This document shows positions 422 to 17,975 of a stretch of 26,321 nt of DNA, piece by piece. Source of the DNA: an uncultured virus (IMG/VR IMGVR_UViG_3300044859_000256) (taxonomy: Duplodnaviria; Heunggongvirae; Uroviricota; Caudoviricetes). The stretch is taken from the IMG/VR virus record IMGVR_UViG_3300044859_000256, one strand, 5' to 3'. Each line of letters begins with the position of its first letter. The stretch's first letter is position 1. Below the pieces are notes generated by a model, which had not been told where the DNA came from, made no database searches, and saw only the letters and a list, made by a program, of their open reading frames with translations. Both the position numbers and the translations under genes were made by a program.

Positions 422-439
422 GATAGTATCCTTTCTTAG

Positions 440-511
440 TGGGACAGAAGAGACTTGAACTCTTAACCAATCGGTTAAAAGCCGACTGCTCTACCATTGA
501 GCTACAATCCC
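440..511 (-). tRNA. tRNA-Lys(UUU)
   Basis: Cloverleaf GGGATTG-TA-GCTC AATGGTA GAGC-A-GTCGG CT TTT AA CCGAT-TGGTT-AAGAG TTCAAGT CTCTT-CTGTCCC-A. No encoded CCA. Confidence 0.95.
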
Positions 512-516
512 TATAG

Positions 517-589
517 TAGCACGGGTGGGAGTCGAACCCACACTACACAGATTTTAAGTCTGTAGACTCTGCCATTGGTCTACCGTGCC
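517..589 (-). tRNA. tRNA-Leu(UAA) with short variable loop
   Basis: GGCACGG-TA-GAC CAATGGCAGA GTC-T-ACAGA CT TAA AA TCTGT-GTAGT-GTGGG TTCGACT CCCAC-CCGTGCT-A. A73 discriminator, 3-bp D stem, 5-nt variable loop. Confidence 0.92.
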
Positions 590-590
590 A

Positions 591-644
591 TAGGTAGGAT
601 ACATAGCATGATAGGGTCAAAGCCTATTGTATATGCACCTACCA
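591..644 (-). ncRNA. armless tRNA-Gln(UUG)-like hairpin
   Basis: TGGTAGG-TGCATATACA-ATAGG CT TTG AC CCTAT-CATGCTATGTAT-CCTACCT-A. Acceptor-like stem plus a perfect anticodon stem-loop, with no D or T arm. Fills the Arg-Leu spacer almost exactly. Confidence 0.6.
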
Positions 645-647
645 AAG

Positions 648-721
648 CGTCCCTGACTGGACTCGAACCAGTAACCTATCGGGTAGAAACCGATGCCTCT
701 ATCCAATTGAGATACAAGGAC
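648..721 (-). tRNA. tRNA-Arg(UCU)
   Basis: GTCCTTG-TA-TCTC AATTGGATA GAGG-C-ATCGG TT TCT AC CCGAT-AGGTT-ACTGG TTCGAGT CCAGT-CAGGGAC-G. The A20 Arg identity base is present. Confidence 0.95.
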
Positions 722-1651: not shown

Positions 1652-1727
1652 TAGAAGGGGCGGGAGTTGCACCCACATACTCACACTTATAAGGTGTGCG
1701 CTATAACTGCGTTTCAGCCACCCTTCT
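1652..1727 (-). tRNA. tRNA-Ile(UAU), non-canonical D and T loops
   Basis: AGAAGGG-TG-GCT GAAACGCAGTTAT AGC-G-CACAC CT TAT AA GTGTG-AGTAT-GTGGG TGCAACT CCCGC-CCCTTCT-A. All four stems pair. Confidence 0.85.
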
Positions 1728-6752: not shown

Positions 6753-9700
6753 CTATTGGGCATTATCTAAGAGATCCCCTAGGGAACCTGATACACCCTT
6801 TGACATGTCTTCATAACGGACTCCGGCTTGGGCTGCTCTTGCCTTCTTAAGGGCTTGGGCTTCCAGCTCAAAGTTGCGGGGGGCAACCTTAGGTATCGGT
6901 GGTAACGACTGAGAAGAACTTTGTTTTCTTCCTTGGCTCTTTGCATAAGGATGTGGGTTCTTGTGAATCATGTTCATGTAGGTTTGCAATGTTCCCTTTT
7001 CTTCCAAAGCTCCTGAGACTTCTAGGGATCTAGCAGCCACAGCAATTGGACTTCGGTTTAACAAAGAGTTAACTGATGTGATATCACCAACTCCCTTAGC
7101 AACCTTCATGTAATCAACTTCTTCATCACCCGTGACTCCTTCTACAACTTCACTAACGCCTCTACCAATACTCTCTACAGCCCCGGTAGCAGCTCCCATA
7201 CCAATGGACTGCATTGGACTACCGTAGTACTTCCAAGTTCCACCAGACATGTAGCTCAGACCACTTAAACCAGCCTCTAGAGCACCAGACCACATTCCCA
7301 TGATAGGGGCAGACTTAGCTACACGGACAGCAAAGGCATGTGGGTTATCTGAGAACTCTTCAAGGATATCCTCGCCATCTCTTCCGGCTAGCCACTCACG
7401 GAGTAGACCGATAGTGGCATCCAATGTTCCATAGAGAACTATGTTAGCGGCTAAGTACCGAAGTGTATCGCGGCTACCATAATCCAGTATAACATTATCT
7501 TGGAACCCACGGATGTAGGAGCTAAGAGCATACCAGAGTTTACCAAGTGGTGTCTTGGAATCAATCGTAGTAACTCGACCTAAACCAATAGGTTCAGGTG
7601 TAGATGTCTTTACAATCAGATCTTCTAGGGCAAGTCCGTAAGAACTAATAACTTGCTCTAATACTTCTGGTTTAATCCCAGCAACAGGATGAGTCGTAGC
7701 ATGCCAATATACATCAACCATGTTGTGTAGATTAACCCGACCTTCACCCTTCTTGTCAACCTTCTTAATTAAATATTCAAGATGTTTAATCTTCTCGACA
7801 GAGTTTAAACCATACTTCATAAAGACTAGAGCTTCCTTTGGGTTGAACCCGAAGCCAGTCTTTCTAGCCAATGCATAGAATTGTTTACGGAGCTGATTCT
7901 CTGCTCCTGCGCTTGTTTCTGCAGCTGCCATATAGTCCTGCATGAGTTTCATCATAGCAGGATCTTCTAGGGCTACTAGTAGCTTTTGAATTCTACCTTT
8001 CTTAATATGACCATAGATCATACGCTGTAGTCGGACCTTAGCCATTGATCTGGTTATATTGGTGATCGCTTGTAGCGAACCAATAGTCTCAGCAACTCTA
8101 GCTCCAGACTCTAGAACACGAACGCCTCTATCCACAAGACCCGTTGCAGGGCGGGGATTAATAAATTTACCCTTGATCTTAGATCCAATTGTAGAATCTA
8201 ATTCAAATGCTCCTTGATTTGCTTCACCCAAGAATCGAGAACTAAACTCATACTTAATATTTTCTAGACCGAAGATCATATCCCCAAGCTCAGAGTTATT
8301 CATAAGAGAGTTCTTTGAGACTCGAAAGTCTCCGACCACAAACCTTAAAGTACTAATGAGATTACCCGGAAGATGTAAAGGATTTGACTTTAGAGTTTCC
8401 ATTATAAGCTCAGTCATTGCCCCAAGGTAGTAACCGGAAGCAACCTTAATCTTCATCAATGCCAATAGGCTTCTTGCAGCCGCTTGATCCTGATAAGGAA
8501 GCATAGGAAGAGTATCTGCATTAGATGCATACTCATCCTTAAGTCTTTGAATACCTTCCGTAACATCTTGGAGTCTTGCAGCTAGCTGTCCGGGTGTCCA
8601 GTTTTCAGCTTTAGCTATAGCCTCTATATCTCTTCTGGCTTCACTAGCTACATGAGGAAACACATCAGTGATTCTTACATTGCGAGAACCCATGAGTCTA
8701 TCAAGTTCTCTCTGGAAGATAAGTTCAAATACTCTACCATTCATAAAGTAATTATAAGACTCAGCTAGATTGGTTCTAATGTGTTTTAGAATAACAGGAT
8801 CGGATAGTACTTCTTCAGGAATCAAACCGGGAACAGCCAAAGCTGTCTCCGCTGCCTGATCAACTACCATCAGAGGTCTATCAATGTTAGTACCAGTGTT
8901 TCTCTGGTACTCACTGTATGCACCCTTCTTTGTCTTATAGTCTAACATCTCATTCATCTCAACTTCAATAAGCTCTCTACCCTTTAGGTAGTCTTGCCAC
9001 CGTTGGGTATACAAAGATTTATTGCCGTTGACTGCTTCAATGTAACGAACTCTATCGGCATCAGCTAGTTCACTAATGACCTTAGGCATTCGATATAATG
9101 TGATAACACCACTCTTATCATTTGTAAGAACAAAGTAATTCTGTGAGTCAGAACCATTAGCCAATGTAGCTAGAACACCTTTCTCACCAACAGTAATTGG
9201 ATGTTCAGATATCTTTAGACCAGCTAGAGTCTCAGGGCTAAAGCTCTGAGTTGACTCACCGGGTCTAAAGTCTCGCTTGCCAGCAAACAAGGCAGTACCT
9301 CTCGCCTCTTTTGATGGAGCAACGTCTAGCCAACCAAGAACAATAAGTGTATTGATGTCTAAGATTGGTGACTTTAACTTACGAGTTCTACGAGCCTTTA
9401 CAAGACCCGCTACAAAGAGAGCACGATCAGTTGGACTCATAGCTGAGAAGCTTTCATGGTTCAACTGAACTGGAGCATACTTCATAGGATCAAATGGCGT
9501 ACCATCAGCAGCATTGCTATTAAACAAACCTGTCTCATTCTGTAAACCTAATATAGTTTGATTGGTCTGTCTTGTAATTTGTAATAATGAATTAGCTTCA
9601 ACAGCTATTGACTTAGCTAGGTCTGGAGATAGACCAAGAGCAACAAGATCAGCAGGGGCAATAATAGTACCCTCTGAAAGCTTTGTATAACTTAGTACAC

Positions 9701-12700
9701 CAACAGCTCTAACCTTATCTAGAGCTAGTCCACTATCCTTTAACTTTTTATTGAGTAAGAGTTGTTGTCTAGCAATACGAGTAATCATCCGGGCTTCATC
9801 AGACTTACATTGTCTTGCAGTTCGGAAAGCTTCCTTACCTGCTCCAACTAAATGTCCTGACTGTGCTCGGTTGTCTTCAAACAAACGAGATAAGAATCGA
9901 ATATTCTTCTGTAGATTTCTAATGGTCTTACCAGTCTGACTAGCAGCCTGTGTTGCATTAGCCATCCAACTATTCATTGCTCTCCACCAGTTTCTAGATG
10001 CTCGTTCACTACCACCAAAGATTGCTCCAATAAGACTTCCTTGACGCAAGAGCACTGATGTACTTTGTTCGGAGTCCTTTGTAGCAGTATTAATGATTCT
10101 ACCCATATCACCTCTAGGTGTTTCTTTTATAGGTTCTAATGGAATAGTTTCTGGCGTAACTGGAACTTCCTCACCAGCCTTAGGGGCTGGAGCTGGAGTT
10201 GGCTCAGGTGGTACAGGCACAGGAGACTCTGCTTTAGTAGCATCACTTACTTTCTTTCGCGGAGTCTTAGACTCCTTGGCAACTAAAGTAAATGCAGTAG
10301 CATCCTCAGATGATTTAACAATATTTAATTCATCCAAAAGAATAGGAGGCATGTAAGCATCTCCAACTTCCTTAGCAGCAAGCACCATAAGCTGACGCTC
10401 TGATAAAGACTTGAAACCCGGAACAGTAGCAAGCTTCTGAACATTTTCAGCCCGTAGCTTATCTACCGCAATCCAGAACTTGGATATACCCTCATCACCA
10501 AAGACAGCTCTGTTAGCTTCAACAATTGCTTTGTTGATAGTAACAAACTTTGTCCACAGCGACAACAGCGTAGGAGAGTAAGTATCAACTGCCTTATCTA
10601 TATTCTTCATGCGTGTCCAGTAGTTCTTTAAGAATAACTTTAAGAACCCTTGGTCCATTCCATTGTCACGGAGTAGATCCTTATCATCATTAACAACCCG
10701 CTCTATTCTTTCTGTCTCAGTAGTCTTAACAACGTCTGATACAGTCTTTCGTGGAGCAGGGGGAGCAATGCCACCTGTCTTAGTAACTCTAACTGGTGCG
10801 CCTTCGCTGGCTGCAAGTGGAACCGGAGTTGAAGGTAAATCTTCCACAGGTGCTACAGCCGGAGCTGGAGTTGTGGTTGGTTCTACTACCTCAACCTTAG
10901 GAGGTTCAACGGCAGCTGTTACAGTCTTTATTGGCACACCTTTCTTAACCTTAATCTTTGTTACAGAAGGAACACCCGCCTTAACCTTAGTTTCAGTAAC
11001 ACCCTTAACAACTACAGATGCATCAGCTTGAATTGGCATTACTACACCGTCTGAGAAGACGAGAGCATCAACGCCCATTCTATCTGCAACCTTCATAGTG
11101 GATGCCATCTTAACTTCGTTAGCCATGAACTCAGCTGCGGTCATGGTCATTGTTAGTGGCTTCTTAGGAACAAACGACACAGCTTCTTTGGTTGACACAT
11201 CACTGTTTTCAATGATAGCATCAACTTGTTTCTCTGGTCGTAGTACAGCTTCTGGAACATTACCAGTAACTTCCGAAGTAGCTCTAAACAATGTACCCTC
11301 TTCCACCTTTGTAACAGGTGTCATAACTGGAGATGCATCGGTCTTTTTACTTCTAGCAGCCAAGGCTTGCTTCTCTAGCAAGCGACTTCCAGCATCAATA
11401 GGATTAGATACTTGCTTTGGAGTTGGCGCAGCTTCGGCTTGCTTAACAATCGCCTTAACTGACTCTGGCTTTTCTACTGCCTTAGTAACAACCTGATCCA
11501 TTTGCTTAACATGTGCTAGAAGAGAGTCTTGAGTTTCTACTAGTCTAGCCTTTGGATCATATTCAATAGCTTTACCAATAGCAACCATCTTATTATACAA
11601 CGCATTTCTGCGGTTGCCAATAGTTCTATCTTCTACTTTCTTACCAAGAAGCTCGGCTGACTTAGAAGCTAATTCTTTATCGGACTCAACCAATAGCAAG
11701 GCTTTAGCTAGCGTAACTTCTTCTGGAGTTAAGAGAGTATTGTTTGTGAGATTATTCCATGTTAATGCTCTGTCAAACATAATAGCACTAAATTCTTTAT
11801 CAGTAGTTGGTACAAACACACCAGCATTTTTACTCGGTACAGATCCTTCTTTGAGGATACCTTCTGCAGTTTCTCCTTGCTGATCTTTCTTACCAGCCTT
11901 ACCTTTTCTTTGTTCAGATAGAAAATCTCTTCTCTTAATTGTTCCAGCAAGACGAAGCAGATGCTTTACAGACGGTAACTTACCTGCTTCAATTCTCTTA
12001 ATGAGATATGGGCGGTTCTCATATAGAGGACCAAGTTCTTCGTCTGTAAGTTTGCCTTCTGTGAACAATCTAATAACAACATCATCTAGATTATCTACAG
12101 TAAGTTCTTCACTACCATCGGAAATAGCGGCAAGCGTTGCGGCTTCCTTTACCTTAGCTTCTTTTGCTGCAACTGCTTTCTTTGCCCTAGGCGTTTTAGC
12201 AGCCTTGGCAGCTTTACTTGGTTTCTTTGGTTTCTTAGTAGAAGGAAGTTCCCACTTACCAGAAGTTTCATTTAAGACAATACTACCACTAGTAATCATT
12301 GTGTGAATACCAGTTAAGAGTTTTTCAGGAGTCATGTTTGGAGTATCGCTTATCTTTTGAATCAATGCTGCATCAATGTTCTTAAGCAAAGTAGGAATAC
12401 TCAGATGAGTAATATCCTTGTTGCTTAGGAATGCAGCAATCGAATCAATAGCAATATCCTTGGAAGACCAGATAGGAAGATCCATGTCTCTTGTGATAAT
12501 AGGATCAGTAACACTGAATGTTCCTCTGTTGGAAGTAGATTTAATTTGTGGTTGTTCAAAGGCAATCCAAACACGGTGTCTTACACTATCTGCCTTTACC
12601 CGACCACCACCCATATGTGTGATGCCATCAATAGGAGATTGTTTAAACAGATCCATTACTATAGCAGAAACATAGTCATCACCATCTTCAACATAAGAAA

Positions 12701-15700
12701 TAATATTATCTTCTAGCTGTCTAAATGCTGATTCATTTGTATCAAACTGTTTTGTATAAGATGTTGGTTCAAGTACAAGACCTTTTGCCGTAATCATACC
12801 TTCAGATCCAAGAGGAAGTCCTAAAAATTCTTTTCTAGTAGTTTCTATCTGGCGTTCAATCTGAGCTAATAAGTCACCATTATATTTTAAACCGTCAGTT
12901 AACTTTTCTCTTAGCTCTGGTGAAATACGATAATTACTTACAACTGATGACCAAAGATTTCGATCAAACGGTGCATCCATATCAATTGGATTTTTGATAG
13001 ATAAGTAAACAGGATAAATAGAGGCTCCCTTACTAGGTCTTGTTCCCGGCTTAACTGCATACTCAGAAGCAATACTTGGATTAGCCGTAAAATAATAACC
13101 CGGACCAAACAAACCAAACTCAGGATTCTCTGGTAATTTAAACTGATCATAACCACCACTGCGTGTACCATGATACATAATCAATGGATTACCATTCTCA
13201 TCAACAACTTTACTACCATCAAAGTAAATCTTAAACTCAGGAGTTTCTTTAACGCGCTCTAAGAAAGCTTTACGGGTTTGATTGTTATCAACACCAGCAT
13301 CTATATCCCTACGAATATCGGGATCAAGTTTATTAAAGGTTCCTTCGTTGTAGACAGACTTAACTTGTTCTACCTTAAGGGCAATCCAGTAAGTATTACC
13401 CTCAGCCATTTTAATTTGATAACCATCATAACCCAAAGCTGCCACTGCTTTAGCCAAAGATGTATTAAAGATTGTTTGGACTGTTTCCCCATCAGCCATA
13501 TTTCCTAGGCGTGTGGCTTCCTTTAATGCATTATACTCTTCGGTTAAATTCTTTTCTTTTAATAGCTTGTAAACTTCCTGTAAGATTCTTTTTGGTTCTT
13601 TACTATAATCTAAAATCAAAGGATTAACAATACTAATAAATAAAGGAAAGAGGCGAGCACCCGTAGGTGCATTAGGTTGTCTTGGATTTACTAAAGCAAA
13701 GTTATTAGCAGTAGATGGATTGGTAGTTGTGTAAACACCACTTCCAAACATACCACCACCCAATTTAAATTTATTGAAGTCAACTAAGGTTGTTGTGCCA
13801 TGATAAACAATAATAGGCTTACCATTCTCATCAACAGCTTTGCTGTCCCCAAAGAACTTTTTGAACTCCGGTGTGGATGTAACTTCTTCAATGTAAGAAC
13901 GGTTTAAACCTTCGGTGTCAAAGACACCCTCTGCCTTGAGCGTATCAATGTAATGCTTATGATGTACCAGAGTAACCAGATGAGCAATATCTGCAAAGCC
14001 ATTATTTTTATAATAGTCTTTCAAGGTATGCATCAACGGTTGGTTCAAGTATGGATCATTTCTTACTTGCTCTAATAAAGCAAGTCTATCAGTTTCACTA
14101 AGACTATTCTTAGCAGTTCCTTCAACAGACTTGTCTAGCAGTTCAATAAGCGAAGTAGCTTTGGTTCCCCAGAAGGTGTGTGAGTATCGACTAGGTTTAT
14201 TTAGAGGATCTAAATAATTAGTAGCTTGCATCTGGGCTAGACCACGATCTTCATAAGTAGCAGCTAAGATGGTTTCAACACCACCCTGAACCGACTCAAA
14301 AGATTCGGCTCCCATGCTAAACAATCTTCGTTGCATGAACTTGATACGATCCTTTTTACTCATTCCAACTAGTTGTGCATAGTCTGGAGTAGTAAGTAAG
14401 AAGGCAGTTTTAATAAGCATAGACCCAAACTGGGTTTGCTTATATGTACTATAGACATCAACCAAGTCTTTCATATATACAGTAGGATTGCCCTTCATGT
14501 CAATAGCTTGTCTACCATTGCTCTTTAGGATTGTCAGTGCAACAATTAGAGAAGGATCTCTCTCACCTCTCATAATGAGATTATATTCACCACTAGTTAA
14601 CATAGCTCTCTTAACAACTTCTGGACTATGCTCTGGTAGATTCTTAATCATCCAGTCTTTTACAAAAGTATTAAACACATTAGGGGCAATATCACTTGAT
14701 ACTGTCTGTGCATTTACTGCAGCTGCATATGCTCTTGATAAGTCTGGAACAGAGATAGCTTTAGATGCAGCCGTATCCATTTCAGTCAGACGATTAATCA
14801 AACCATTAACAACAGTGTAATGATCTGAAGTATCAAACATACTGGCTGCAAGTATGATCCCCTGTTCCATGCTGTTGATGATAGATCTAAAAGAAGATAC
14901 TTCAATTGGAGCCATCTGTGATACAGCAAGCTGTGCTTCAGTAAATAGAATCTTTGAGAAGGACTGAACAAATACTTCTTCAGCATTCTGAAGATGATAC
15001 ACACTCAGGAAGTTAGCGGAGAGTAATGGATCAGACATATTAGCCACATCTAGATTCAATAAGGATGGTCCATAGTTTCGAGTGAGACTATTGTACATCT
15101 TTAGATTGTCTACATAGATATCAGCTGTTGCACTTGATTGGAAATAAGCATGTCCAATTTCATGCAAGACTGTGATAGCTCTTCGCTCTGAATCATTACC
15201 AATCCATAAGCTGTTCATTACTATTGTCTTATTCGCTGCGGAGTAAGCACCAATTGTGGTGTACTCAATGTTCCCATCCACATCTAGAATTGGTTCAATC
15301 TTAAAGTCTACTGCAAAAGCCTTGGAGTCAAAGTTTAAATGAACTACAGAAGCCAATAGAATAGCTTGGTCAATTTCATTAATGATTTCATTCTCTACTA
15401 AATCATTGGTGAACTGAAAGAACTTCTCAGCATTGACTTGGTTACCAGAAACTAATGAAGAGAACTTATTAATGTCATCCTTAAGTGCGTTGATCAAAGC
15501 CATTCGCTTTGGATTCAACTTCTTAATCTTAAGGGCTTCCTTAATTGAGTTTGTCAGTCTATTGGATGGCTTACGAGCCACTCCACTAATGTCTGCCTTT
15601 AGGGCTTCAACAGTACTTGGACTGACTGTGCCAGTAATAGCAACTTCAGTGATTGCGGCATCAAGAATATCTAAGACTTCCTTTGGAAGATCAGCACGGA

Positions 15701-17975
15701 GTTCAGCCTTCCTTGATGGATTAGCTACGATCTCTCGCGCTGTTCCCAGCAAGCTGACTGCAGCCTTTTCAGCTGCATCATTCTTGGCTGCTGAAGAGAT
15801 CACGGTAGATCTAGCATCAGCTACATGTTCCGTAATAGTCTTAACAGGTTTCTTGACACCACCAAGACTATCACTGAGAGCCTTACGCTCTGGCTTGGAT
15901 AGAGACTTAGTGTATTGTTTAATCATACTACGCCGCTGCGACTCCATAATCGCATAGGCTTTCTCACGAGCAGGGGTTAACTTACCTGCTTCCTTTTCCT
16001 TAAGTCTGGTTGTATTCAGATGTTCTTCGGATGCATAAAGAATCCGAAGTCTATCTGTAGTTCCCATGTCACCAAAGGTATCACCCGTCCCAGTAAGGGA
16101 AGCGCGTTCTTTAACCGCATCCCCCGCTGAGTTCTTACGGGATATCTCAGTAACAAACTCAATGATGTTGCTGAGAGTACCATTAGCACCTGTGCGTTCA
16201 GCATAGGCTTGTCTGGTTTCGTTATCCAACCGTCTGGTCATAGGGACATCAGGGGTTGCTCTAGCGGCATCAGGAGTTACTGCAGCACGAGCATCAGCTC
16301 TATTGACTGCAGTCTGGGTTTCATTACTCAGCTGCTGTGCTGATGGCTTTACACCCTCTAGCTCGGCTTCGGTAATGATCTTCTCATGGAGGGGCAGATC
16401 AACTGCTACATCCTTACGACTTAACTTGCCTTTGTAGAATCCCAGAGCCTCACCAAGGCGTGTACCTTCATAGGTAAAGCGTTTGTCTCCGGTCATACGA
16501 ACTACAGATTCCCCCAGAGGGGCAACATTGACACCCCTGAGTTTGTTTAAAAAAGCCCCAGCCGTACTGCCCATAACTCCGGGTGCTAAACCAAAACCTA
16601 AGAAGCCGATTGCAAAGCCTTCACCACCAGCCCAGCCAATGCTTGAAAGATCATAATCCTTCTGCATTTCTGGGTCCGCAAAAAGAAGAGCATTACTATA
16701 AGCAATTTGTTTCTCTTGTCTGGTAGCCTCTTGTAAGGCTGCACCAACTCCGAATATTGAACCAGTTAAAGTATAAGTACCAAGCATGCCAAGATTCTTA
16801 GCATAGGTTGGGCTTAGTCCAAGGGGAAGTTTAGCAATTGTTGAAGCAACATTACGAGCTGCTCTAAAAACAGCAAAGCCTGTGCTTGCAACAGCAACCG
16901 TAGGGGCTGCATATGCTGTAGCAACCAAATTAAAACCACCAGTAGCAACTGTGGCTGCAACTTCTAAAGCAATAAATGGAACGGTATCCGAAGAATTTAG
17001 AATACCACCAACCAAATTATCTGCTATTAATCTCCCACTATCAAAATAACCGGGAGCATATGCTTCAATTCTTTTTTGCGTATCACTCTTAAAGATGATC
17101 TCACCAATTCTAAAGTTAGCTTCATCTTCATTGAGTGCTGTTCTAATTGTATTTGATGAGATACCATTTTCAATAAAACCCTGCTTGACAGTAGGATCTA
17201 AATTACTCCACCATATAGCAGGATCAAAAGTTAAATCAACTCGGTTACGAATCTTTAGAATATCATCAATGCCTCTAGCAATCTTAGTATTCTTAGTAGG
17301 ATTATAAGCTGCATTGTATCCATCATATAAAGCACCTGCGGCTCCATAAGTATAAGCATTTAGAATCTTACCATAGACTTCTGCTTGTGAGCGGAAGGCA
17401 TCAACCATAGAGAAACCAAGATCCGTTTTAGTAACCTCGCTTGCTTTTGCATAGGCAAGCTGGTACATCATAGCATTCACTCTTTTTTGTGTTGGAGTAG
17501 GATTCTCAGGATCTTGTGGTTCTTGTTTAGCAATAGGTAACAACTTGGAAAGTATGGAGCGGAGATTATCTTGTACTTCAGGAGTTAACTGACTGGCTCC
17601 AAACTCTGCCGGAGCTAAAGGATCATCTTTCTGACCCATTAGAATACCACGCTGGAATGCACCAAATGAATAGTCTTGGAACTCATTAGGTCCCATACCT
17701 ATATACTGAGCAATCTTTTGGGCATAGCCCTGTGCGCCACCTGTGCTAATAGATTCTGCTTGTGTCAGCGCATATAAATTGTTATAGGTATCTTTTTGAG
17801 TGTTAGGCTGTGGTCCCCAAAAACCTGGTTCATGCATTCTTGCAACATCAACATAGTTAGGAGCACCCTGATAAGCCATCAGGAATTGATTACCAGTTGT
17901 GTAGTATTGTGGTTGCAGTCTCGGTGTTTCTGGTGTCTCCGGTACTATAGGAAAGTTGTTAGTGTAATTAATCAT
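6753..17975 (-). CDS. giant polyvalent internal virion (ejection) protein with zincin peptidase, tandem ADP-ribosyltransferase and HTH modules
   Basis: 3740-aa ORF with an AGAAAGGA SD. Last of four size-ascending genes after terL. Gly/Ala-rich hydrophobic segments near both termini, HEIGH motif, two YHGT ART modules. Confidence 0.85.
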   Translation of the reverse strand: MINYTNNFPIVPETPETPRLQPQYYTTGNQFLMAYQGAPNYVDVARMHEPGFWGPQPNTQKDTYNNLYALTQAESISTGGAQGYAQKIAQYIGMGPNEFQDYSFGAFQRGILMGQKDDPLAPAEFGASQLTPEVQDNLRSILSKLLPIAKQEPQDPENPTPTQKRVNAMMYQLAYAKASEVTKTDLGFSMVDAFRSQAEVYGKILNAYTYGAAGALYDGYNAAYNPTKNTKIARGIDDILKIRNRVDLTFDPAIWWSNLDPTVKQGFIENGISSNTIRTALNEDEANFRIGEIIFKSDTQKRIEAYAPGYFDSGRLIADNLVGGILNSSDTVPFIALEVAATVATGGFNLVATAYAAPTVAVASTGFAVFRAARNVASTIAKLPLGLSPTYAKNLGMLGTYTLTGSIFGVGAALQEATRQEKQIAYSNALLFADPEMQKDYDLSSIGWAGGEGFAIGFLGFGLAPGVMGSTAGAFLNKLRGVNVAPLGESVVRMTGDKRFTYEGTRLGEALGFYKGKLSRKDVAVDLPLHEKIITEAELEGVKPSAQQLSNETQTAVNRADARAAVTPDAARATPDVPMTRRLDNETRQAYAERTGANGTLSNIIEFVTEISRKNSAGDAVKERASLTGTGDTFGDMGTTDRLRILYASEEHLNTTRLKEKEAGKLTPAREKAYAIMESQRRSMIKQYTKSLSKPERKALSDSLGGVKKPVKTITEHVADARSTVISSAAKNDAAEKAAVSLLGTAREIVANPSRKAELRADLPKEVLDILDAAITEVAITGTVSPSTVEALKADISGVARKPSNRLTNSIKEALKIKKLNPKRMALINALKDDINKFSSLVSGNQVNAEKFFQFTNDLVENEIINEIDQAILLASVVHLNFDSKAFAVDFKIEPILDVDGNIEYTTIGAYSAANKTIVMNSLWIGNDSERRAITVLHEIGHAYFQSSATADIYVDNLKMYNSLTRNYGPSLLNLDVANMSDPLLSANFLSVYHLQNAEEVFVQSFSKILFTEAQLAVSQMAPIEVSSFRSIINSMEQGIILAASMFDTSDHYTVVNGLINRLTEMDTAASKAISVPDLSRAYAAAVNAQTVSSDIAPNVFNTFVKDWMIKNLPEHSPEVVKRAMLTSGEYNLIMRGERDPSLIVALTILKSNGRQAIDMKGNPTVYMKDLVDVYSTYKQTQFGSMLIKTAFLLTTPDYAQLVGMSKKDRIKFMQRRLFSMGAESFESVQGGVETILAATYEDRGLAQMQATNYLDPLNKPSRYSHTFWGTKATSLIELLDKSVEGTAKNSLSETDRLALLEQVRNDPYLNQPLMHTLKDYYKNNGFADIAHLVTLVHHKHYIDTLKAEGVFDTEGLNRSYIEEVTSTPEFKKFFGDSKAVDENGKPIIVYHGTTTLVDFNKFKLGGGMFGSGVYTTTNPSTANNFALVNPRQPNAPTGARLFPLFISIVNPLILDYSKEPKRILQEVYKLLKEKNLTEEYNALKEATRLGNMADGETVQTIFNTSLAKAVAALGYDGYQIKMAEGNTYWIALKVEQVKSVYNEGTFNKLDPDIRRDIDAGVDNNQTRKAFLERVKETPEFKIYFDGSKVVDENGNPLIMYHGTRSGGYDQFKLPENPEFGLFGPGYYFTANPSIASEYAVKPGTRPSKGASIYPVYLSIKNPIDMDAPFDRNLWSSVVSNYRISPELREKLTDGLKYNGDLLAQIERQIETTRKEFLGLPLGSEGMITAKGLVLEPTSYTKQFDTNESAFRQLEDNIISYVEDGDDYVSAIVMDLFKQSPIDGITHMGGGRVKADSVRHRVWIAFEQPQIKSTSNRGTFSVTDPIITRDMDLPIWSSKDIAIDSIAAFLSNKDITHLSIPTLLKNIDAALIQKISDTPNMTPEKLLTGIHTMITSGSIVLNETSGKWELPSTKKPKKPSKAAKAAKTPRAKKAVAAKEAKVKEAATLAAISDGSEELTVDNLDDVVIRLFTEGKLTDEELGPLYENRPYLIKRIEAGKLPSVKHLLRLAGTIKRRDFLSEQRKGKAGKKDQQGETAEGILKEGSVPSKNAGVFVPTTDKEFSAIMFDRALTWNNLTNNTLLTPEEVTLAKALLLVESDKELASKSAELLGKKVEDRTIGNRRNALYNKMVAIGKAIEYDPKARLVETQDSLLAHVKQMDQVVTKAVEKPESVKAIVKQAEAAPTPKQVSNPIDAGSRLLEKQALAARSKKTDASPVMTPVTKVEEGTLFRATSEVTGNVPEAVLRPEKQVDAIIENSDVSTKEAVSFVPKKPLTMTMTAAEFMANEVKMASTMKVADRMGVDALVFSDGVVMPIQADASVVVKGVTETKVKAGVPSVTKIKVKKGVPIKTVTAAVEPPKVEVVEPTTTPAPAVAPVEDLPSTPVPLAASEGAPVRVTKTGGIAPPAPRKTVSDVVKTTETERIERVVNDDKDLLRDNGMDQGFLKLFLKNYWTRMKNIDKAVDTYSPTLLSLWTKFVTINKAIVEANRAVFGDEGISKFWIAVDKLRAENVQKLATVPGFKSLSERQLMVLAAKEVGDAYMPPILLDELNIVKSSEDATAFTLVAKESKTPRKKVSDATKAESPVPVPPEPTPAPAPKAGEEVPVTPETIPLEPIKETPRGDMGRIINTATKDSEQSTSVLLRQGSLIGAIFGGSERASRNWWRAMNSWMANATQAASQTGKTIRNLQKNIRFLSRLFEDNRAQSGHLVGAGKEAFRTARQCKSDEARMITRIARQQLLLNKKLKDSGLALDKVRAVGVLSYTKLSEGTIIAPADLVALGLSPDLAKSIAVEANSLLQITRQTNQTILGLQNETGLFNSNAADGTPFDPMKYAPVQLNHESFSAMSPTDRALFVAGLVKARRTRKLKSPILDINTLIVLGWLDVAPSKEARGTALFAGKRDFRPGESTQSFSPETLAGLKISEHPITVGEKGVLATLANGSDSQNYFVLTNDKSGVITLYRMPKVISELADADRVRYIEAVNGNKSLYTQRWQDYLKGRELIEVEMNEMLDYKTKKGAYSEYQRNTGTNIDRPLMVVDQAAETALAVPGLIPEEVLSDPVILKHIRTNLAESYNYFMNGRVFELIFQRELDRLMGSRNVRITDVFPHVASEARRDIEAIAKAENWTPGQLAARLQDVTEGIQRLKDEYASNADTLPMLPYQDQAAARSLLALMKIKVASGYYLGAMTELIMETLKSNPLHLPGNLISTLRFVVGDFRVSKNSLMNNSELGDMIFGLENIKYEFSSRFLGEANQGAFELDSTIGSKIKGKFINPRPATGLVDRGVRVLESGARVAETIGSLQAITNITRSMAKVRLQRMIYGHIKKGRIQKLLVALEDPAMMKLMQDYMAAAETSAGAENQLRKQFYALARKTGFGFNPKEALVFMKYGLNSVEKIKHLEYLIKKVDKKGEGRVNLHNMVDVYWHATTHPVAGIKPEVLEQVISSYGLALEDLIVKTSTPEPIGLGRVTTIDSKTPLGKLWYALSSYIRGFQDNVILDYGSRDTLRYLAANIVLYGTLDATIGLLREWLAGRDGEDILEEFSDNPHAFAVRVAKSAPIMGMWSGALEAGLSGLSYMSGGTWKYYGSPMQSIGMGAATGAVESIGRGVSEVVEGVTGDEEVDYMKVAKGVGDITSVNSLLNRSPIAVAARSLEVSGALEEKGTLQTYMNMIHKNPHPYAKSQGRKQSSSQSLPPIPKVAPRNFELEAQALKKARAAQAGVRYEDMSKGVSGSLGDLLDNAQ
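11580..11740 (-). other. sigma70 region 4 / LuxR-like helix-turn-helix within the giant protein
   Basis: LTPEEVTLAKALLLVESDKELA...LLG...RTIGNRRNALYNKM (from about aa 2082). Confidence 0.5.
12480..13255 (-). other. ART-PolyVal-type ADP-ribosyltransferase domain, copy 2
   Basis: FKIYFDGSKVVDENGNPLIMYHGT, FGPGYYFT, ASEYA, IYPVYLSIKNP, IDGI, QIKS..NRGTF...DP.I (His about aa 1602). Confidence 0.85.
13305..13885 (-). other. ART-PolyVal-type ADP-ribosyltransferase domain, copy 1
   Basis: FKKFFGDSKAVDENGKPIIVYHGT, FGSGVYTT, LFPLFISIVNPL, GYDG, QVKS..NEGTF...DPDI (His about aa 1392). Confidence 0.85.
14900..15330 (-). other. zincin-like metallopeptidase domain within the giant protein
   Basis: GAY.....I.M...TVLHEIGH (15150-15164, about aa 938), with downstream EEVF as candidate third zinc ligand. 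Confidence 0.75.

Follow-up and report, generated by a model that had tools for sequence, protein, structure and literature searches.

What lies in the 57 nucleotides (nt) between the genes for tRNA-Arg and tRNA-Leu in the transfer RNA (tRNA) array of an uncultured virus? The question arises from a 26,321-nt stretch of the virus record IMGVR_UViG_3300044859_000256 (hereafter the window), in which this spacer (646..590, minus strand) houses an element of its own at 644..591. A first-pass annotation, made from the letters of the window alone, had described the element as an armless tRNA-Gln(UUG)-like RNA occupying a slot in the array. Comparison with relatives gives the following answer: the element is a structured RNA under selection, it belongs to the tRNA strand, it is restricted to one phage clade, and it presents an anticodon-loop look-alike at the tip of a freely changing stem.

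The Arg-Leu Spacer Encodes a Rod-Shaped Hairpin With an Anticodon-Like Loop

The borders of the 54-nt element were borne out. It starts 2-3 nt past the discriminator of tRNA-Arg, depending on the tRNA caller, and ends 1 nt before the first base of tRNA-Leu (G589), whereby its last base pair lies 3 nt from the 5' end of Leu. RNAfold of 646..590 gave a minimum free energy of -18.8 kcal/mol (z = -3.07), and only 1 of 200 shuffled sequences was equally stable. The predicted fold agrees with the first-pass annotation in the perfect stem of 5 base pairs (bp), in the loop CUUUGAC and in the rod formed by the strands that stand in place of the D and T arms. Because these strands pair with each other, the molecule is a straight rod without an elbow. 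In the window, the rod consists of a 6-bp stem, a bulge, a second 6-bp stem, another bulge, two pairs, a CA/CA internal loop, the 5-bp stem, and the 7-nt loop. The parts of the element are as follows.

644..591, minus: hairpin element within the borders of the first-pass annotation; 590-646 with its single-stranded tails
643-638 with 598-593, minus: pairs of the lower stem (RNAfold)
637-632 with 605-600, minus: second stem (RNAfold)
631-630 with 608-607, minus: two extra pairs (RNAfold)
630..643, minus: 5' strand of the lower rod, pairing with 593-608, with two bulges, both on the 3' strand
593..608, minus: 3' strand of the lower rod; two related contigs have U in place of C598 (G-C to G.U)
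628..629, minus: 5' side of the internal loop, CA, within the block UAUACA, the same in all 14 aligned variants
609..610, minus: 3' side of the internal loop, CA; it reads CAUG in the window and CAAG in most relatives
611..627 (627-623 with 615-611), minus: upper stem, 5 bp, AUAGG/CCUAU, perfect in the window; four of five pairs changed on both sides among relatives
616..622, minus: apical 7-nt loop CUUUGAC with the triplet UUG, an anticodon-loop look-alike

Standard tRNA finders miss the element, as had been foreseen. ARAGORN in bacterial mode makes no tRNA call at this site, and Rfam yields no match to 590-646 at E<=10, while the four neighboring tRNAs reach 53-71 bits with the tRNA model (RF00005). 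This model gives no match on the related hairpins of the B, E, and F types described below either. In metazoan-mitochondrial mode, ARAGORN forces a 72-nt "mtRNA-Gln(ttg)" around the anticodon-like arm, which overlaps both neighboring tRNAs and has a poor acceptor stem.

The Hairpin Is Conserved in One Phage Clade by Compensatory Changes

Nine related viral contigs encode a neighboring protein that is 87-100% identical to that of the window. The 301-nt array is 99.7-100% identical in these contigs, while the flanking 100-nt bins fall to 78-87%, and the sole change inside the element is the exchange of C598 for U in two of them, which turns a G-C into a G.U pair. An exact search of the viral contigs with the Arg 3'-end pattern led to nothing beyond the same nine contigs. 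For more distant relatives, the RNA polymerase was used as query and ARAGORN was run on the 41 loci recovered. Contigs with a polymerase identity of 80-83% have arrays in the order Ile, Arg, gap, Leu, Lys, and their gap holds a homologous hairpin directly 5' of Leu, with stems that are mostly rewritten and a loop that is unchanged. In relatives with polymerases 45-74% identical, no hairpin was found on either side of tRNA-Leu and there was no match to the model R1, which scores window 590-649 (minus) at 66.3 bits. The element is thus restricted to one clade and absent from relatives whose polymerase identity does not exceed 74%. In 27 of the 41 polymerase loci, 88 tRNA genes were detected, none of them a tRNA-Gln, and no relative was found with a full tRNA-Gln in the slot of the hairpin.

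Pattern scans complemented this set, whereby three scans left the loop and its stem unspecified in order to avoid circularity. The Leu-anchored scan of viral contigs identified 38 loci, 15 of which have the hairpin; the remaining 23 are from other phage lineages and lack it. When only the Leu T-arm and the Lys D-arm served as anchors, a scan of metagenomes yielded 16 loci, 14 of them in the clade, and the hairpin is present in all 14. The scan on the variant Leu 5' end gave six loci on six contigs, namely the known E-type contig, a second E-type, two contigs with a more divergent form (F-type), and two without hairpin. With only the internal-loop flanks given and the central 15-16 nt left free, 57 loci were obtained, of which 8 are true hairpins (lower stem of at least 9 bp) and 49 are chance matches; all eight true hairpins have a C-Y-U-U-N-A-M loop, and no new variant was added. 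In total, 15 distinct variants are known. The hairpin lies 3-5 nt from Leu in 13 of the 15 and about 50-70 nt from Leu in the F-type. It is always upstream of Leu-Lys and is present in a single R1 copy; the model detects no other in the rest of the 67-kb genome or at the loci of the relatives.

Pair counts were made with 14 aligned variants. The E type (two contigs) was excluded because an extra small hairpin after the anticodon-like arm prevents a reliable alignment, and alignment A3 from the model search, which held five weak antisense rows, was not used for the counts. Under a two-helix model, 92.6% of the 243 cells pair, as against 30-52% for slid partners. Twelve of the 18 pairs are changed on both sides (8 of 13 in the lower stem and 4 of 5 in the upper stem), and the observed covariation was reached in none of 500 shuffles; the same result for pairing and covariation was obtained with a 12-variant set. 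The variation is concentrated in the paired columns, 26 of 36 of which vary compared to 4 of 14 in the loop and internal loop (Fisher p = 0.009). Likewise, the window differs from the B-type at none of the 7 loop positions, at 1 of 7 internal-loop positions, and at 21 of 36 paired positions. Invariant in all 14 aligned variants are the block UAUACA before the upper stem, C32, U34, U35, and A37 of the loop (numbered as in a tRNA), as well as the C and the G of the 3' side of the internal loop. Read in the tRNA sense, the alignment has 36 G.U cells, and the R1 scores amount to 66-85 bits for the sense but only 15-20 bits for the antisense strand. Thus, the structure belongs to the RNA of the tRNA strand.

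These data show that the element is a selected structured RNA with the compensatory changes by which conserved non-coding RNAs are recognized. The first-pass annotation had suggested looking in the arrays of relatives for either a full tRNA-Gln or a covarying hairpin with a conserved UUG loop. It is the covarying hairpin that was found, and since its loop is largely fixed, the element is more than a generic hairpin; the constancy of UUG itself did not hold, as detailed below. With its covariation, its fixed unpaired bases, and no Rfam family, the hairpin is a clean candidate for a new RNA motif.

The variant types differ in what surrounds the hairpin. In the B, C, and D types, a second small hairpin of the form GUAAG(AAA)...(UUU)CUUAC, which is not present in the window, is located just 5' of the anticodon-like hairpin (L049:3301-3329, L062:3555-3583, L053:2735-2760) and could be a processing site or a weak terminator. 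In the D type, tRNA-Arg and the hairpin are set apart by an inserted open reading frame (ORF) of about 100 codons (L053:2429-2740, L055:2647-2960), and the hairpin stays by tRNA-Leu. The E type (L061:1255-1411, same in L145) has an aberrant tRNA-Arg, which is missed by ARAGORN and reaches 31 bits with Rfam, barely above the cut-off, as well as an extra 3-bp hairpin after the main hairpin, and nine nucleotides of the tRNA-Leu 5' end are duplicated ahead of Leu. These E-type features look like recombination scars. In the F type (L143:174-300 and the same region of L144), a fragment resembling the D arm of tRNA-Leu lies upstream of the hairpin, and another hairpin of about 50 nt is found between the hairpin and tRNA-Leu. 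Three further viral contigs (L156, L173, L184; 151-182) share a hairpin with ACA/CAAG internal-loop flanks, a 6-bp upper stem, an AAAA loop, and a 5-bp lower stem, which is probably a chance product of the search pattern.

The Conserved Feature Is a UUN-Type Loop and Not a Set of Gln Identity Elements

The loop sequences of the 15 variants are distributed as follows.

CUUUGAC: 6 of 15 variants
CUUUGAA: 5 of 15 variants
CCUUGAA: 1 of 15 variants
CUUUGUC: 1 of 15 variants (E type)
CCUUUAA: 1 of 15 variants (F type)
CUUUCAA: 1 of 15 variants (F type)

The fixed feature is a UUN-type anticodon-loop look-alike and not strictly a Gln anticodon. The three tRNAs with a 2-thio wobble uridine have the anticodons UUG, UUU, and UUC, and the coincidence of the loop triplets with this set may be due to chance, as there are only two deviant variants.

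The identity set of tRNA-Gln comprises G2-C71, G3-C70, a weak 1-72 pair, U35, and G36. In the window copy, G2-C71 and G3-C70 are indeed present and positions 1 and 72 are an unpaired U.U, as the first-pass annotation had reported, and the loop has C32, U33, UUG, and A37. This set is not conserved among the members. G2-C71 and G3-C70 are confined to the A-type; the B and C types have a G.U at 2-71, and the D and F types begin with other pairs. G36 is kept in 13 of the 15 variants, and U33 or A37 is missing from 3 of 15. The lower stem varies between 9 and 14 bp with variable bulges, and 8 of the 14 aligned variants close the loop with an A.C mismatch. Of the proposed armless tRNA-Gln, the anticodon-like loop was therefore largely kept, whereas the acceptor identity and the length of the rod were not, U33 and A37 were each lost in some variants, and no full tRNA-Gln was found in the relatives. 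A mini tRNA-Gln that can be charged or that decodes, as had been considered, does not agree with the unconserved G2-C71/G3-C70 pairs, the 9-14-bp rod, the A.C closing mismatch, and the straight shape. The element is almost certainly not a working or decoding tRNA, and the two other suggestions of the first-pass annotation, a decoy or a reduced tRNA retained as a spacer, may still apply.

Origin of the Element

An identical 17-nt anticodon arm, together with the flanking CA and CAT, is present in the true tRNA-Gln(UUG) of an unrelated 229-kb phage contig (L026). In the array of the window, the real tRNAs read A-ending codons, and CAA accounts for 341 of the 609 Gln codons of the phage, which makes a former tRNA-Gln(UUG) in this array plausible. 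Most likely, the element would derive from a former tRNA of the array, of which the anticodon arm persisted while the D and T arms were lost; an arm of the Lys(UUU) kind is a less likely but conceivable source. If so, the element records a route by which a tRNA gene loses both side arms yet stays under selection.

A search for the 19-mer of the arm in prokaryotic genomes (see below) led to a metagenome-assembled genome labeled Clostridia, which contains a tRNA-Gln(UUG)-like gene (L134:114-179) with acceptor stem, D-arm-like hairpin, anticodon arm, and encoded CCA, but without a T arm. The gene lies 4 nt before a tRNA-Asn, and in its acceptor and anticodon arms it agrees with the full tRNA-Gln of the 229-kb phage contig. 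As a T-arm-deleted derivative of a phage-type tRNA-Gln thus exists, such tRNA reductions do happen.

Possible Role of the Hairpin and Alternative Explanations

What might the hairpin do? The element would be transcribed from the tRNA-sense strand within the early tRNA transcript. Judging from general tRNA processing, it could be set free as a separate, short-tailed hairpin of about 55 nt, by the 3' maturation of Arg on one side and by RNase P at Leu +1 on the other. As the stems change freely and the unpaired nucleotides are held, it would act via sequence-specific recognition of its loops. The likeliest partner would be a factor that reads anticodon loops, e.g., a host anticodon-directed nuclease, a wobble-U modification enzyme, or a synthetase, for which the hairpin might serve as a putative decoy or docking site. 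We tentatively favor this reading, a small RNA derived from a tRNA anticodon arm, released during processing of the flanking tRNAs, and acting through its conserved loops as binding site or decoy, as a possible role that falls somewhat short of an even chance. Its more specific form, a decoy mini-RNA that is cut from the tRNA precursor and diverts a host factor attacking or modifying UUN anticodon loops (Gln, Lys, Glu class), is doubtful and has a small probability in our view. An anticodon nuclease of an anti-phage defense would be an example of such a target, and the decoy would then complement the replacement tRNAs encoded alongside. If true, it would represent a new class of RNA-based counter-defense.

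Several observations weigh against the reading as a tRNA-derived binding site or decoy. The 19-mer of the anticodon-like arm, searched in one genome per bacterial or archaeal species (185,579 species), gave two matches, neither of which is a canonical tRNA-Gln; thus, the stem copies no known host tRNA. Homology outside the 17-24-nt core has no statistical support, and the Rfam tRNA model is silent on the element. The triplet is UUG in 13 of the 15 variants, UUU in one, and UUC in one, both deviants being F-type, so that "Gln mimic" is too narrow a term. C33 is found in two variants (one with UUG and one with UUU) and U37 in the E type. There are about 15 variants, all from one narrow clade, and the variant counts are therefore not phylogenetically independent. 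The constant place upstream of Leu-Lys in one transcription unit, 3-5 nt from Leu in nearly all variants, also fits a purely cis-acting role. A full-text literature search returned no phage anticodon-arm decoy RNA, no armless phage tRNA, and no precedent for the mechanism. With regard to expression, 14 runs recorded as RNA contain parts of the stretch; the four examined are assembled contigs, which are silent on ends, strand, and level. A single RNA-library contig of 290 nt (X1, record 4; 508-796) runs across Leu, the hairpin, and Arg; DNA carry-over is possible for it. As such contigs show neither ends nor strand and may stem from DNA, they are weak support for expression.

The main rival explanation is that the hairpin is a cis-acting processing or stability element of the early transcript, either an RNase III-type site or a protective 5' leader of the Leu-Lys precursor, which would part the tRNAs from the RNA upstream and have no role after cleavage. 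The phage is T7-like and the array is located just before the polymerase gene. RNase III sites of T7, several of which are present in its early region, are generally hairpins split by an asymmetric internal loop, and the element has this shape (about 18-20 bp with an asymmetric internal loop) as well as the position between cistrons. Moreover, it is always found upstream of Leu-Lys, the D-type copy behind the ORF of about 100 codons would part messenger RNA (mRNA) from tRNA, and the internal-loop nucleotides are its most invariant part. However, general RNases need no anticodon-like tip, and yet C32, U34, U35, and A37 are invariant in all aligned variants. There is also just one R1 copy per genome, although sites of different sequence would escape R1, and RNase P and 3' maturation part adjacent tRNAs unaided, e.g., at the 4-nt Leu-Lys junction. 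Overall, we consider a purely cis-acting hairpin unlikely, though by no means negligible. The loop might instead mimic a codon for the neighboring tRNA-Leu, whereby its 5'-UUUGA would kiss the Leu anticodon loop in the precursor. UUG is a Leu codon, 13 of 15 variants have the hairpin directly next to Leu, and UUUGA can form five Watson-Crick pairs with Leu(CAA) in the B, C, and D types and four plus one G.U with Leu(UAA) in the window. Against this, we estimate the chance of a complementarity to one of the four neighboring anticodons at about 1 in 16, and the loop fails to track the Leu anticodon, as UUG stands beside both UAA and CAA. In addition, the F-type loops with UUU and UUC occur beside Leu(UAA) at a distance of about 50-70 nt, and variants with C33 or U37 forfeit flanking pairs, which leaves the codon mimic improbable.

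A true armless tRNA-Gln(UUG), which would be CCA-tailed, charged, and reading CAA, can point to the loop nucleotides and the G2-C71, G3-C70, and open 1-72 positions of the window copy, to its tRNA-like slot and spacing, to CAA being a common codon, and to the mitochondrial-mode Gln(ttg) call. But this call overlaps both neighbors and has a poor acceptor stem, the acceptor pairs are unconserved, and the variable rod, the losses of U33 and A37, the A.C closing mismatch, and the paired connectors all speak against a tRNA; neither is there a gene for an adapted CCA-adding enzyme or EF-Tu among the 51 distinct ORFs scanned, so that we regard this explanation as extremely improbable. A functionless, decaying tRNA remnant that is conserved through close kinship alone would fit the scars in the arrays (the aberrant Arg and the 9-nt Leu 5' duplicate of the E-type, the Leu D-arm fragment of the F-type) and the restriction to one clade with its absence at 74% polymerase identity or less. 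It is disfavored as very improbable, since 92.6% pairing despite changes on both sides of 12 pairs is not expected of a neutral remnant, and neither is the constancy of the unpaired bases next to variation in 26 of 36 paired columns. The TTGAC within the loop recalls the -35 box of a host sigma-70 promoter, and the signal could accordingly reside in the DNA, as such a promoter, as a promoter of the phage polymerase, or as a relic of a phage attachment site (attP). To this we assign hardly any probability at all. The promoter and terminator scan was empty at the hairpin; any -10 box would abut Leu +1 and place the transcription start within the tRNA, and the hexamers that could act as -10 boxes are poor and unconserved. 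The element is single-copy, unlike phage promoters, and the G.U pairs point to RNA. An attP would have to match a host tRNA gene, which is incompatible with covarying stems, and no integrase family was found among the 51 ORFs scanned. Promoter, attP relic, and neutral remnant were thus rejected on geometry, copy number, or covariation.

Genome and tRNA Array of the Phage

The window belongs to a virus record of 67,266 bases with an estimated completeness of 99% and 41% G+C. The gene set is of the T7 type, with a single-subunit RNA polymerase, primase-helicase, DNA polymerase I, ribonucleotide reductase, T7-type terminase, scaffold, and tail tube. No named phage has an RNA polymerase more than 28% identical to this one, and there is therefore no annotated relative; blastn of 400-1800 against 50,697 phage records gave tRNA-length matches only. 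The whole genome has four tRNAs in total, all on the minus strand.

1727..1652, minus: tRNA-Ile(UAU) (ARAGORN, Rfam)
721..647/648, minus: tRNA-Arg(UCU) (ARAGORN; Rfam tRNA 57.7 bits), without encoded CCA; upstream neighbor of the element on the transcript
589..516, minus: tRNA-Leu(UAA) (ARAGORN, Rfam); downstream neighbor of the element
511..439, minus: tRNA-Lys(UUU) (ARAGORN, Rfam); last gene of the array

All four have UNN anticodons (UCU, UAA, UUU, UAU), which confirmed the pattern seen in the first-pass annotation. The array sits among small ORFs immediately upstream of the RNA polymerase gene, and Leu and Lys are separated by 4 nt. The tRNA-Ile (1652-1727, minus; UAU in the genome) is separate from the other three tRNAs here. 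As it directly adjoins tRNA-Arg in the B, C, D, and F types, the array of the window has been split by inserted small ORFs.

For the family scans, 51 distinct phage ORFs were compared to PHROGs or Pfam, 3 of them to both libraries. No tRNA-related enzyme family (nucleotidyltransferase, EF-Tu, synthetase) was found among these 51 ORFs, and for the small early ORFs, Pfam and PHROGs returned no informative family. A 189-residue ORF (L036:4710-5279, genome 40710-41279) has a match to the C-terminal citrate synthase domain (Pfam PF00285, E = 3.8e-12), which is odd for a T7-like phage. A single ORF of 3740 residues at window 6753-17975 (minus) lies beside ORFs of 1404 and 1750 residues; the latter two have no family match, and a 1097-residue ORF matches a PHROG tail protein.

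Comparison With Known tRNA-Related RNAs

We class the element as a tRNA-derived structured RNA of a phage tRNA cluster, for which there is no Rfam family. T4 RNAC (species 1) and RNAD (species 2) are small stable RNAs inside a phage tRNA cluster, which are about twice as long as the element and are not anticodon-arm look-alikes. The element resembles them as a non-tRNA RNA in a phage tRNA array that is presumably freed by tRNA-processing enzymes. Going by the general descriptions of the two T4 RNAs, it differs from them in being shorter and in imitating an anticodon arm. With the RNase III hairpins of the T7 early region, as these are generally described, it shares the place in the early region before the polymerase gene, the length of about 20 bp, and the asymmetric internal loop, but it is single-copy and has a selected anticodon-like apical loop.

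In the operator of Escherichia coli thrS, a mimic of an anticodon arm is bound by an aminoacyl-tRNA synthetase. The tRNA-like element of human immunodeficiency virus 1 (HIV-1) binds lysyl-tRNA synthetase (LysRS) (PMC5113203). Like these two, the element is an isolated stem-loop with conserved anticodon-loop nucleotides (C32, U34, U35, A37 in 14 of 14) on a covarying stem. The thrS operator and the HIV-1 element, however, reside in an mRNA leader and a viral genome, respectively, and serve a defined regulated process, whereas the hairpin is located in a tRNA array with no adjacent regulated ORF, and its binding is putative.

The closest structural parallel to the first-pass description would be the armless mitochondrial tRNAs of enoplean nematodes, e.g., Romanomermis culicivorax, which lack D and T arms (PMC3579883; PMC6158502) and depend on a co-adapted CCA-adding enzyme and EF-Tu (PMC7730189; PMC12221289). 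They share with the element the hairpin-like form, the acceptor-like stem, the normal-looking anticodon arm, the lack of D and T arms, and being missed by standard finders. Their connectors are unpaired bulges in a constant design, whereas the element has paired connectors, a variable rod, and drifting identity positions, and no adapted machinery is encoded with it.

Phage tRNAs that counter anticodon-directed nucleases do so, in the known cases, as full, functional, cleavage-resistant replacements (PMC10264068; PMC12445682; PMC11555353). The element is likewise phage-encoded and tRNA-related, has a conserved anticodon loop, and stands beside a tRNA of a nuclease-target class, e.g., Lys(UUU). 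In contrast to these replacements, it is a truncated hairpin; the three reports contain no description of a truncated decoy hairpin, with 0 occurrences of "decoy" and of "hairpin" in PMC10264068 and 0 of "decoy" in PMC12445682. It has become common to view phage tRNA genes as weapons against host nucleases that cut anticodon loops. If the element is indeed a bare anticodon arm held on a stable rod, such arrays may, besides replacement tRNAs, also code for mimics to which the same host factors bind.

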